Source of the DNA: Myxococcales bacterium
GTDB lineage: Bacteria; Myxococcota; Myxococcia; Myxococcales; UBA5297
Reading direction: 5' to 3'
Length of the DNA: 64,000 bases
Assembly (NCBI GenBank): GCA_049841135.1
Contig: JASGHK010000008.1
Coordinates: forward strand, 211,272-275,271
Shown here piece after piece: positions 475 through 58,867 of this stretch. Below the pieces are notes generated by a model. The model was given only the letters and a program-made list of their open reading frames with translations. It did not search any database and had not been told where the DNA came from. The stretch's first letter is position 1. The number at the start of each line of letters is the position of its first letter. The position numbers and the translations under genes are program-made.

Positions 475-1975
475 ATGGGGCCCGCCATGACCGCGCGCAC
501 CGTCTCCGACCTCCCCCAGCCCATCGTCCGCGCCGCCAGGCTCGCGCCGGTCCCCATGTACCTGCGCGCCATCTTCAGCCGGCTGCCCGAGCCGCTCTCG
601 CTCGACGCGGAGATTGGCGGCGCCCCCGAGCACATCCCGCTCGCGGCCCGCCAGCTGCTCAAGCTGGGCCTGCTCAGCGAGCAGCTCCAGCTGCGCTCGG
701 CCAGGCAGACCGACGACGGCGTCCTCAAGCTCACCATCTCGCGCAGCGGCAAGGCCTTCACCCCCACCCTCGACGAGCTTCTCCCGCGGCATCACCGTGG
801 TGGCCCAGGCCATCCTCGAGACGCTCTTCGCGCGCGCCGAGGCGAGCGCGATGCTGCAGACCTTCGCCTTCCAGTCCTCGAACCTGGCGACCCTGCGGAC
901 CATCACCAACTTCATGCTCGGGTCCACCGACGTGGACCAGGCGCTCTACATCCTGCTCTCGGGCATCACCTCCGGCTTCTCGCTGGGCTTCAACCGCGCC
1001 GCGCTCTTCGTCTGGGACCCCACCCGCAAGGCCTTCGTGGGCAGCAAGGCCATCGGCCCCTACGACGAGGCGGACGCGCACCGCATCTGGGAGGCCATCG
1101 AGGAGGAGGACAAGGACATCGAGGCCCTCATCCGCGACTACGCCCGGCGCAACTTCGACACCCGGTTCCAGCAGTACGTCCAGGGGCTGGAGCTGGCCCC
1201 GGCGGGCGGCGTGGCCGACGAGGTCACCCGCGCGCTGCTCTCCCCGCAACCGGTCCTCTTCCGCCAGGAGCTGGCCATCAACCCGGGCCTGAAGAAGCTC
1301 GGCGCCGGCGGCGAGTACGTCCTGGCCAGCCTCAAGCCGCACGGGCGGACGCTGGGCCTGGTCCTGTGCGACAACCGCTACAACCGCGCTCCGATCTTCG
1401 TCGACCAGCTGACCTACCTGTCCTTCTTCATCGACCAGACCGCGCTCGTCTGGGAGAACCTGGCGCTGCTCAAGAGCGTCGAGGAGCTGGCCCGCGTCGA
1501 CGCGCTGACCGGGACCTTCAACCGCCGCGAGCTCGAGAGCCGGCTGCGCTTCGAGCTGGCGCGCTGCCAGCGCCACGGCCGCCCCTGCTCGCTGCTCATC
1601 GCCGACGTCGACCTCTTCAAGCAGGTCAACGACCAGAAGGGCCACGAGGCCGGCGACGAGGTGCTGCGCCAGGTCGGCTCGCTCCTGCGCGAGGCGACCC
1701 GCGCCGACGACGTGGTGGGCCGCTACGGCGGCGACGAGTTCGTGGTGGTCATCCCCGAGGGCTCGCACGAGCACCTGGTGCCCTGCGCCCAGCGGGTGGG
1801 CGCGCTCGCCCAGGGCCGCGGCATCTCGCTCTCCATCGGCGGCGCGACCTGGCCGACCGACTGCGCCCAGCCCGCGGACCTGCTGTCCGCGGCGGACCAG
1901 TGCCTGTACCGGGCCAAGGCCGGCGGCCGCGGCTGCGCCTGCGTCCCTGGACAGGACCCGATTTCATACCGGTAG
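475..1975 (+). CDS. GAF-GGDEF diguanylate cyclase, frameshifted near nt 790; the frame 614/851..1975 holds the GAF and GGDEF parts
   Basis: The GGDEF signature RYGGDEFVV and the surrounding motifs LIADVDLFKQVNDQKGHEAGDEVL are present, with a GAF-like region upstream. A plausible N-terminal extension (MGPAMTARTVSDLPQPIVRA...) sits in another frame (ATG 475) and joins at about nt 780-800, which implies a 1-nt indel. An alternative in-frame ATG lies at 851. Confidence 0.7.
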
Positions 1976-2013
1976 CGCTAAAATCGCTGGCGCTGCCCAC
2001 CCTGGAGGCTCCG

Positions 2014-57600: not shown

Positions 57601-58867
57601 CCCCGCTTCGCGGCTGAGGTGGGCGATGGCGCTGGCCGGCCATGCCCTGCGCCAGCTCGCCCAGCGCCTGCTGCGCCGCCCGCCCGAGGCCGACGCCTTC
57701 CGGCGCGAGTGCGCCAACGAGGCGGCGCAGGCCTATGAGCGGCTGGGGCCGGTCTGCATCTTCTTCAACCTCCCGCCCGACGCCTTGTTCTGCTCGCTGG
57801 CGGGGACCAACCTCGCCGGCCGCGTCGGGCCCTCGGGGGTGCTCGCCAAGGCCTTCGCCAACTTCGCCATCGGCCTCTCGGTCGCTCCGCTGCCCGCCCT
57901 GGCCGAGCGCTATGCGCGCCTTGCGCTCTCCCAGCTCGGTCCGGCGACCCCGGTGGGCGCCGAGGCCTGGGTCCAGGAGATGGTCGCCCTGTTCTGCACC
58001 GGCGCCGGCCGCTGGGACGAGGCGGTCGCAGGCTTCCGCCGGGGCGCGCAGCTGCACCAGACCCTGGGGGATCGGCGTCGCCAGGAGGAGTGCGAGCTGA
58101 TCCTCGCCGTCATCGGCCACCTGCGCGGCGACCTCGCGGGCTCGCTGGCGAGTGCCCGGGAGGTGGCCGAGACCGCCGGCCGGCGCGAGGACCGGCACAT
58201 GCTGGGCGGCAGCGGCGCCATGGTCGGCCTCTCGCTGCACCGCCTGGGCCGGTTCGACGAGGCTGCGGCCACGGCCGAGCAGGCCGCCGGCAACGCCCGG
58301 CAGGTCCGCGCCCGCCCCGAGCTCATCTGGGCGCTGGGGGTGCAGTCCGCGGCGGAGCTGGCCCGCGGCGAACGGGAGCGGGCCCTCGCCGCCGCCCAGG
58401 AGGCGGTGCGGACCATGGCCGGCCTGATGCCCACCGCGGCCTGGGTCCTCGAGGGCTACGCCTGCACCGCCGAGACCCTGCTCCGCCTGGCCTCGGAGCG
58501 ACCGGAGCTCGACGGCCTCGCCCGCGAGGCGTTCGCCGGCGTCGAGCGGTGCGCCAGGAGCTTCCCGTGGCTGCGGGCGCGCCGGGCCTACCTGGAGGGG
58601 CTTCGGGCGGACCTCGCCGGGGACCGGGAGAAGGGCACTCGCCACCACCTCCGGGCGGTCACCGCGGCCCAGGCGCTGGGGAGCCTCGTCGACGAGGCCC
58701 TGGCGCTGCAGGCCATCGTCCTCCTCCCCCGGCCGGAGAGGCCGCTCGCCGCCCCGCTCGCCGCCCCGGACCGGCGGGAGCGCCTGCGCGAGATCGAGCG
58801 GCGCACCGGCCTCGTCCTCCCCTTGGACCCGGCCTTGGCAGGGTCTCGGGACCAGGCGATCTCCTGA
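54683..58867 (+). CDS. Multidomain signalling protein: two tandem class-III cyclase homology domains, a STAND/AAA ATPase and a long TPR-like C-terminus. Two compensating 1-nt frameshifts lie near 56660-56690 and 56895-56915
   Basis: Cyclase homology domain 1 reads [12 protein letters not shown]...[17 protein letters not shown]. Cyclase homology domain 2 reads [10 protein letters not shown]...AAFGLPP...[34 protein letters not shown]. The Walker A motif is [11 protein letters not shown]. Between 56690 and 56910 the conserved STAND segment RALADAAGPSRLVLEPLSGEQTTSLVCRRLG...AAGHPFFSEELAFALRDSGAL lies in the +1 frame (ORF 56724..57017) while the main frame reads nonsense ([22 protein letters not shown]...). 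The main frame then resumes, followed by about 600 aa of helical repeats. Confidence 0.8.
   Translation: [1394 protein letters not shown]

Follow-up and report, generated by a model that had tools for sequence, protein, structure and literature searches.

Frame breaks clustered at GAGCT(C) in a Myxococcales metagenome-assembled genome are probably consensus errors of a long-read assembly

Nine breaks of the reading frame, distributed over eight genes, are present in the deposited sequence of a 64,000-nt stretch of Myxococcales DNA (the window). They are best read as base-calling or polishing errors in the consensus of a long-read metagenome assembly and not as mutations of the organism, and we give this reading, which is drawn from sequence comparison, a probability of about 0.85. 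The window lies within a 1,652,613-nt (1.65-Mb) contig of a GenBank Myxococcales metagenome-assembled genome (MAG) with QM765_ locus tags; for a soil-type Myxococcota MAG, so long a contig implies assembly from long reads. From the kind of MAG, the insertion-only direction of the located indels, their clustering at one motif and the lack of other damage, we infer that the deposited base calls are wrong and that the genes are not decaying. The preliminary description of this DNA had also preferred sequencing or assembly indels to decay; that preference is the best-supported one, on grounds other than those first offered.

Frame breaks and affected genes

The breaks were mapped by a GC3 frame plot together with six-frame Viterbi segmentation. 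Same-strand, gapless switches of frame were found at 777/778, 7942/3, 10640/1, 11681/2, 31171/2, 34212/3, 56653/4 and 56911/2, and the start region of the TetR gene near 52730 is likewise affected. All nine breaks named in the preliminary description were recovered in the same eight genes (Table 1), within about 10 nt of the positions first given, and the density of 9 per 58.4 kb agrees with its estimate of about one per 6 kb. Once the frames are repaired, the translated proteins are continuous. GC3 keeps a level of about 0.95-1.0 before and after the breaks, and codon bias is unchanged.

Table 1. Genes of the window that contain frame breaks. The breaks are numbered S1 to S9, and inserted bases are given in square brackets.
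Gene	Position	Strand	Break
GGDEF diguanylate cyclase	475..1975	+	S1: 1-nt insertion ~780, GAGCT[T]C
Pyruvate:ferredoxin oxidoreductase (PFOR)	6097..9685	-	S2: 1-nt insertion ~7942, + strand GATCTC[T]GCTG
Dihydroorotate-dehydrogenase-like (DHOD-like)	9842..10835	-	S3: 1-nt insertion 10645/10646, + strand GAGCT[T]C
Hypothetical gene	11151..12057	-	S4: 1-nt insertion 11688/11689, + strand CAGC[C]TC
Major-vault-protein (MVP) homologue	31027..33196	-	S5: 1-nt insertion 31171/31172, + strand GTG[C]AGCTC
Cys-rich lipoprotein (lipobox LAGC)	33872..34482	+	S6: break ~34212-34235, -1 or +2
TetR/AcrR regulator	52174..52751	-	S7: break after codon 7-8, -1 or +2
Adenylate/guanylate cyclase-STAND (AAA_16, TPR)	54761..58867	+	Two insertions. 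S8: +1 at 56684-56686 (GAGCTTC); S9: +2 at 56909-56913 (TGC[GA]GAGCTC)

Domain matches and relatives support the repaired frames. The GGDEF domain occupies residues 339-486 of the repaired cyclase. In PFOR, the Pfam POR domain (residues 437-619) covers the junction at residue 581/582, and the repaired protein aligns without gaps across the junction with PDB 6cin and 1b0p. PFOR shares 92.9% identity with the relative L001 upstream of the break and 91.0% downstream; both parts align without gaps and have an equal nonsynonymous fraction. The match to the DHO_dh model (positions 2-290) runs unbroken over the junction of the DHOD-like gene. MVP_shoulder and Vault_3 domains were found in the MVP homologue, and no Pfam match was obtained for the hypothetical gene. 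Relatives of the MVP, STAND, TetR and lipoprotein genes pass the junctions without interruption: six distant relatives of the lipoprotein align unbroken from one half into the other, and the Cys at the junction is invariant among them. Relatives of the TetR regulator start with MPRPSRR-x-x-LLDAAA, and in the repaired protein TetR_N begins at residue 9.

The cyclase-STAND gene contains two breaks, +1 and then +2, with a net gain of one codon. About 76 codons between them are out of frame; GC3 follows another frame over 56654-56911, and this alternative frame agrees with the proteins P0002-P0005 nearly residue for residue. The preliminary description took this compensating pair as an argument for sequencing or assembly error. 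The pair does restore the frame, but it carries little weight as an argument: at the observed rate of breaks, two in a 4.2-kb gene have P ~0.14, and there is no further sign that one indel came about to compensate the other. Even if the pair were real, function would not be rescued, because the 76 intervening residues include the conserved GHPFF region.

Position and direction of the indels

The relatives with intact genes that served as references are short-read assemblies: L001 (MEGAHIT), L083 and L082 (Logan), and L081 (JGI). Alignment of DNA to these relatives fixed seven indels, at 780, 7942, 10645, 11689, 31172, 56684 and 56909-56913. Comparison with orthologues had been proposed at the outset as a check, and at all seven sites the intact relatives lack the extra bases that the window carries. 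Each break had been described as a 1-nt indel. This holds for six of the located sites, all of them 1-nt insertions, but near 56905 two nucleotides, GA, are inserted, and the TetR and lipoprotein breaks are -1 or +2. The insertions often duplicate the adjoining base (TT for T, CC for C) or dinucleotide (GAGA for GA).

At the first site, L001 reads GAGCT-C with its open reading frame intact; it is one base shorter in the DHOD-like gene, and it reads GAGC-TC in the hypothetical gene, where the insertion splits an AGCT. The MVP gene of L083 (93% amino acid identity, intact, 714 aa) reads GTG-AGCTC. Against the cyclase-STAND gene, L081 and L082 have a 1-nt gap and a 2-nt gap in their DNA, and at S9 two relatives read TGC--GAGCT. 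The exact position of the lipoprotein break is uncertain; GC3 changes frame there, and CAGCTC at 34230 falls within the zone. The TetR break lies, as first reported, in a (GA)n run, within GAGAGAG/AGCTCC (52723-52734; the slash marks the break).

No further frameshift was found in the window by the Viterbi segmentation or, in the regions that the relatives cover, by their alignments. Gaps of a length not divisible by three elsewhere in these alignments all fall between genes or form local pairs where the sequences diverge. Further same-strand frame switches, at 26841, 47741, 49410 and 52239, were considered and set aside as ordinary junctions between genes of an operon; ATGA stop/start overlaps account for three (47729, 49405 and 52177). 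A more sensitive Viterbi pass for hidden compensated pairs returned just two short segments, of 27 nt (20349-20375) and 43 nt (37230-37272); the latter lies near a GAGCTTC and was rejected as a hidden pair, since its main frame gives a normal protein. No relative with more than 93% identity, and no sequence of the same strain, was present elsewhere in the protein collection.

Sequence context of the insertions

Five of the seven located indels lie at most 1 nt from an AGCT, compared with 3.2% of random positions (P = 6.6e-7), and a sixth, S4, interrupts an AGCT which the relative has in unbroken form. Eight of the nine sites have GAGCT on one of the two strands, independently of the direction in which the gene runs. 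This clustering irrespective of gene strand indicates a cause at the level of the DNA or of the signal. None of the nine sites lies in a homopolymer run of 4 nt or longer.

The hexamer GAGCTC is somewhat under-represented in the window (49 intact copies vs 70 expected), and about 10% of the copies are affected. The broader GRGCYC was tried as the complete motif and rejected, as 119 copies of GAGCCC, GGGCTC or GGGCCC are without a frameshift. Two copies of IS66 contain GAGCTC sites and differ from each other at four bases by substitution, without any indel; the comparison is uninformative on motif errors.

A systematic consensus error and its possible cause

Frameshifted gene calls are a known consequence of consensus indels in nanopore assemblies, and bins with less than about 40x coverage require polishing (PMC9262707). 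The breaks in the window resemble such residual long-read (Nanopore/PacBio) indels (PMC9262707; proovframe preprint 10.1101/2021.08.23.457338) in that small indels interrupt genes that are otherwise intact in a MAG of high contiguity, at a rate of the order of 10 per 100 kb, for which the remedy is polishing or frameshift-aware annotation. They differ from the classic long-read indels, which fall in homopolymers, by being insertions at a specific motif.

The errors would be systematic and not random, with insertions of 1-2 nt concentrated at GAGCT(C). A disturbance of the signal at this motif would be the simplest cause. The disturbance may plausibly come from a modification of the DNA, such as methylation of the GAGCTC (SacI or BanII-type) site, and a base-caller or polisher would then mishandle the modified motif at modest coverage. 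Modification is possibly the cause; no methyltransferase or restriction-modification gene was found within the window.

Motif-specific nanopore errors are known to arise from base modifications (PMC11610603, PMC11610573). The present sites are similar in sharing one short, largely palindromic motif regardless of the strand of the gene, but the published errors are chiefly C>T and G>A substitutions and not insertions, whereas insertions of 1-2 nt at about 10% of motif copies are seen here. That the events are insertions counts against a modification-linked error, and substitution errors would be indistinguishable from real divergence. A precedent for the motif at the level of strains is a bacterium of 67% GC, in which GAGCTC belongs to the 5mC-methylated motif GRGCYC (PMC11649196); a corresponding methylation in the present organism is putative. 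Native R10.4.1 assemblies of the methylated strains contained 114-126 differences, with a net gain of length and 21-34 extra CDS, while a strain without the 5mC GRGCYC motif had 0-2 differences; the link between error and motif in that study is a comparison between strains and not per site (PMC11649196).

Several further observations count against the artefact reading. The PFOR site S2 is the sole site without AGCT, the position of S6 is uncertain, and every site lies outside homopolymers. In addition, the share of GAGCTC copies affected is just about 10%, the other GRGCYC variants have no frameshift, and the IS66 copies show no indel despite their GAGCTC sites.

Alternative explanations

The PFOR site also lends support to an artefact of another origin, a collapse of strain heterogeneity, in which reads of co-existing strains that differ by clustered SNPs were merged into a hybrid consensus that gained an extra base at polymorphic spots. 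The indel there is flanked by three mismatches, outside which the stretch is 97% identical (GATGCC-GCTG in L001 vs GATCTCTGCTG), as would fit poor resolution of a polymorphic spot, and a MAG is by nature a population consensus. The flanks of S1 and S5, however, are 92-96% identical to the relative without any cluster of mismatches, and merged strains would leave unexplained both the common GAGCT(C) and the insertion-only direction of the located events. Strain heterogeneity is thus an unlikely source of the breaks.

The breaks may instead be genuine recent mutations, so that the dominant strain would carry eight inactivated genes, PFOR among them, through early pseudogenisation or a mutator episode. 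They are in the deposited sequence, no clearly essential gene is among the eight, and the TetR (GA)n tract could slip in vivo. At about (GA)4-5, the tract is short for phase variation, and it overlaps GAGCTC as at the other sites. The number of frameshifted genes per unit length also recalls pseudogenisation in decaying genomes. In such genomes, however, constraint is relaxed, while here it is equal on either side of the PFOR break, codon bias is preserved and the indels are biased to one motif and to insertion. Other signs of decay, such as further frame-breaking indels or truncation, were not seen where relatives cover the window. It is implausible that a free-living Myxococcota with a large genome would have 8 of about 40-45 genes hit, approximately one in five. 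The bias to a motif and to insertion is unlike spontaneous spectra, and loss of mismatch repair leads to homopolymer indels. As the assembly also appears to come from long reads, genuine mutation is considered very improbable.

A bolder proposal, to which we attach only a slight chance, is that a process aimed at the motif left the insertions as real scars and has cost the organism about one gene in five; in a milder form, should the errors be artefacts, they would be the footprint of an uncharacterised GAGCTC modification in this lineage. The specific version, in which a SacI- or BanII-like nuclease cuts its own genome at GAGCT^C and error-prone Ku/LigD end joining leaves 1-2 nt behind, appears more remote again. 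Myxococcota encode non-homologous end joining, the insertions at S1, S3 and S8 (+ strand) and S5 (- strand) lie exactly at the SacI cleavage position, and the under-representation of GAGCTC would agree with self-cutting. On the other side, the insertions at S4, S7 and S9 are elsewhere in the motif, cohesive 3' overhangs are usually re-ligated without error, and neither a restriction-modification nor a Ku/LigD gene was found within the window. A long-read artefact covers the same data with fewer assumptions.

Slip sites of the CUU type are known from prfB and Ty1. Programmed recoding, by ribosomal +1 frameshifting or transcriptional slippage that restores the frame in vivo, was considered on account of the CUU-C in the 0 frame at S1 and S8 (GAG CTT C), where a CUU-to-UUC slip of +1 would yield the orthologous protein; it is effectively refuted, as the orthologues are unshifted, the motif follows the DNA and not the orientation of the gene (S3, S4 and S5, in genes of the opposite strand, lack a slippery codon), S9 would require +2, and the sites share neither a slippery motif read along the genes nor a heptamer or stimulatory element.

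Consequences for gene calls

With the breaks best explained as systematic consensus errors, the loss of PFOR is probably not real. The apparent absence of this enzyme and of the seven further genes should not be taken as biology, and metabolic inference from the MAG first requires frameshift-aware gene calling or short-read polishing. Quality checks centred on homopolymers would be blind to errors that, as here, lie outside such runs and gather at GAGCT(C). A genome-wide scan for the motif could repair the MAG and indicate a modification motif.

Frameshift-aware gene calling had been recommended from the start, and the GenBank records bear this out, as three of the proteins are wrong. The MVP call P0121 (QM765_47715) has 832 aa and a false C-terminus because its translation runs on in the wrong frame. 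The TetR call P0241 was forced to a CTG start, which is wrong, and 76 residues are garbled in the cyclase-STAND call P0001 (MGC4122165.1). Garbled GenBank proteins of this MAG are already inside large protein collections.

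Frame breaks and exact indels

The G+C content of the window is 71%, and coding frames are easily followed because third-codon-position G+C (GC3) in its genes is about 0.95-1.0. By GC3 frame plot and six-frame Viterbi segmentation, the coding signal makes eight gapless jumps on the same strand, and in the N-terminus of the TetR gene two frames share the coding. All nine breaks listed in the preliminary description (S1-S9, in window order) thus exist, within about 10 nt of the positions reported there. The remaining frame switches were rejected as breaks, being the usual ATGA stop/start overlaps. 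A more sensitive frame scan of the window gave just two embedded segments, both short. One, close to a GAGCTTC, was checked and rejected as a hidden shift, its main frame giving a normal protein. No additional frameshift was found in the approximately 25 kb covered by relatives, where the remaining gaps that are not multiples of 3 are intergenic or form locally compensating pairs in divergent sequence.

Frame breaks of the window, with indels located by DNA alignment to relatives where an alignment is shown (extra bases bracketed)
Site	Gene	Signal jump	Indel position	Window	Relative
S1	GGDEF	777/778	780	GAGCT[T]C	GAGCT-C
S2	PFOR	7942/3	7942	GATCTC[T]GCTG	GATGCC-GCTG
S3	DHOD-like	10640/1	10645	GGAGCT[T]CAGG	GGCGC-TGAGG
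S4	Hypothetical gene	11681/2	11689	CAGC[C]TC	GAGC-TC
S5	MVP homologue	31171/2	31172	GTG[C]AGCTC	GTG-AGCTC
S6	Cys-rich lipoprotein	34212/3	34212-34235	-1 or +2
S7	TetR	~52730 (two frames)		one base missing or extra GA
S8	Cyclase-STAND	56653/4	56684	GAG[C]TTC	GAG-TAC
S9	Cyclase-STAND	56911/2	56909-13	TGC[GA]GAGCTC	TGC--GAGCT(G/C), two relatives

The relatives used for these alignments were L001, a contig from a Myxococcales MAG in synteny with window positions 486-18229 (nucleotide identity 78-89%), and the contigs L083, L081 and L082, with which the MVP and STAND genes were compared at the DNA level. The comparison with orthologues called for in the preliminary description found the related genes unbroken, and the window carries extra bases at 7/7 located sites. 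A single-base indel per site, as first proposed, holds for S1-S5 and S8, which are 1-nt insertions; S9 is a 2-nt insertion and not a 1-nt deletion. The "compensating pair" of the STAND gene is therefore +1 followed by +2, and because this restores the frame, no compensating event is needed. At several sites the insertion repeats what stands next to it, one base (T to TT, C to CC) or two (GA to GAGA). At the TetR site, the N-terminal length of the relatives favours a missing base.

Repaired genes

With each site repaired, the proteins read through without interruption and make sense. In repaired PFOR the junction at residue 581/582 falls inside the Pfam POR domain (residues 437-619), and alignment to the PFOR structures 6cin and 1b0p is gap-free through it; in the DHOD-like protein, DHO_dh model positions 2-290 of 291 match across the junction. 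The MVP homologue has an intact 714-aa relative, 93% identical, and 11 TetR relatives start with MPRPSRR-x-x-LLDAAA. The Cys-rich lipoprotein has six distant relatives, whose alignments run unbroken over its two halves and show an invariant Cys where these meet. For about 76 residues the deposited cyclase-STAND reading frame gives Arg/Pro-rich nonsense, where the alternative frame reads ...RALADAAGPSRLVLEPLSGEQTTSLVCRRLGVDALP...AAGHPFFSEELAFALRDSGALKIAGRRC..., in near residue-for-residue agreement with four relatives.

Sequence motif at the breaks

None of the nine sites lies in a homopolymer. Five of the seven independently located indels are at most 1 nt from AGCT, compared with 3.2% of random positions (binomial P = 6.6e-7), and the S4 indel splits an AGCT that the relative keeps intact. 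GAGCT is present on one strand at 8/9 sites, TetR and lipoprotein included, and GAGCTC at five or six. The motif occurs in plus- and minus-strand genes alike; this independence of gene strand points to a cause at the DNA or signal level rather than a translational one. Breaks touch only about 1/10 of the GAGCTC copies and leave 49 intact in the window, and no frameshift lies at any of the remaining GRGCYC variants there. A search for a methyltransferase gene within the window found none. Over the whole window GAGCTC is rather scarce (49 observed, about 70 expected under a maximal-order Markov model), and CTAG is strongly avoided (7 vs 48).

Origin of the frame breaks

The frame breaks are very likely, with a probability of about 85%, an artefact of assembly or consensus. 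The gene calls are deposited in GenBank as "MAG: ... [Myxococcales bacterium]" (locus tag QM765_47715, protein MGC4122165.1), and the window belongs to a contig of 1,652,613 nt, a length that in a metagenome bin suggests long-read assembly. The protein collection has no same-strain sequence elsewhere; the relatives that come next show 93%, 77% and 62% identity.

If the breaks are artefacts, base modification at GAGCT(C) might be their cause, at slightly less than even odds. The literature supports systematic consensus error as a class of explanation. Nanopore consensus indels are known to shift the frame of gene calls, and polishing is required for bins under about 40x coverage (PMC9262707); motif-specific nanopore errors arise from base modifications (PMC11610603, PMC11610573). 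The published modification errors are mainly substitutions, whereas the located events here are insertions. In Propionibacterium freudenreichii (67% GC), native R10.4.1 assemblies of two strains with 5mC GRGCYC methylation showed 114-126 differences, gained length overall and had 21-34 additional CDS, and a strain without the motif showed 0-2 differences (PMC11649196). GRGCYC includes GAGCTC, and the parallel is one of strain comparison, not of site-level data (PMC11649196).

An alternative, or a contributor, is the collapse of strain heterogeneity, above all at S2, the sole site without the motif. There (7937-7942) three mismatches adjoin the indel (L001 GCC-, window CTCT) in a stretch otherwise 97% identical, which suggests from the alignment a locally mis-resolved or polymorphic spot and not a simple 1-nt slip.

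The affected genes show no signs of decay. The part of PFOR upstream of its break shares 92.9% identity with L001 and the downstream part 91.0%, gap-free and with equal nonsynonymous fractions on both sides; GC3 is alike on either side of the breaks, and no other frame-breaking indels were seen in regions covered by relatives. Frameshifts hit eight of about 40-45 genes; every one is an indel of 1-2 nt, with a bias towards the motif, and the seven located are all insertions. This pattern is unlike spontaneous decay or a mismatch-repair mutator and fits systematic consensus error. Equal constraint across the breaks, motif bias and insertion-only located sites thus uphold the earlier preference for sequencing or assembly indels over decay; the compensating pair, then offered as an argument, is weak evidence, since at the observed rate a 4.2-kb gene would take two hits with P ~0.14. 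The nine breaks are probably not a real biological feature, nor is the PFOR "lesion" probably biological.

Because of the frameshifts in the contig, three public protein records are mis-translated: P0121 (MVP; 832 aa, false C-terminus), P0001 (STAND; 76 garbled residues) and P0241 (TetR; CTG start). The GAGCT(C) association is the sole point meriting a quick genome-wide check.

Neighbouring elements

In L083 (1-4050) just ~3.4 kb, carrying a Na_Ca_ex gene and one encoding 646 aa, separates the MVP gene from the counterpart of window 52900-53436; the window thus has a variable island of ~19.5 kb (~33.3-52.8 kb), containing the lipoprotein, a WGR/WD40 protein, IS66 copies, an HK/RR/FIST operon, an SDR gene and TetR. 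The IS66-family element (TnpB_IS66 and DDE_Tnp_IS66 transposase) is present as two direct copies, 39259-41723 and 42662-45126, with starts 3.4 kb apart and 99.84% identity (4 substitutions, 0 indels). An imperfect tandem-repeat array (42131-42680; period ~79 nt, unit roughly GGAAATCCGCCCCGCCGCGCTCGCCCGAGACCTGTCACACGCCGAGGACCTGTCACACGTGTGGCAGGTCTCTCCCTCT) adjoins the copy ends, and a partial copy (45126-45225) follows the second element, where one unit recurs. The ORF at 41358-42140 (+), whose final 52 residues match DUF1622 positions 1-52 of 78, ends where the array starts and may be the remnant of a gene cut short by mobile-element or repeat insertion.

A perfect 16-nt palindrome, TACCGTCTGGACGGTA (52762-52777, minus strand), precedes the TetR start codon by ~10 nt and is probably the TetR operator. 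The 988-aa ORF at 2017-4983 (+) had no match in a Pfam search and keeps 68-80% nucleotide identity in L001; at ~3150-4400 the G+C of its codon positions follows an odd pattern, lowest at position 1. The 967-aa protein at 58975-61878 (+) has 18 matched Disintegrin stretches (E = 3e-112), an array unusually long for a bacterium, followed by cadherin-like/Big_9 domains.
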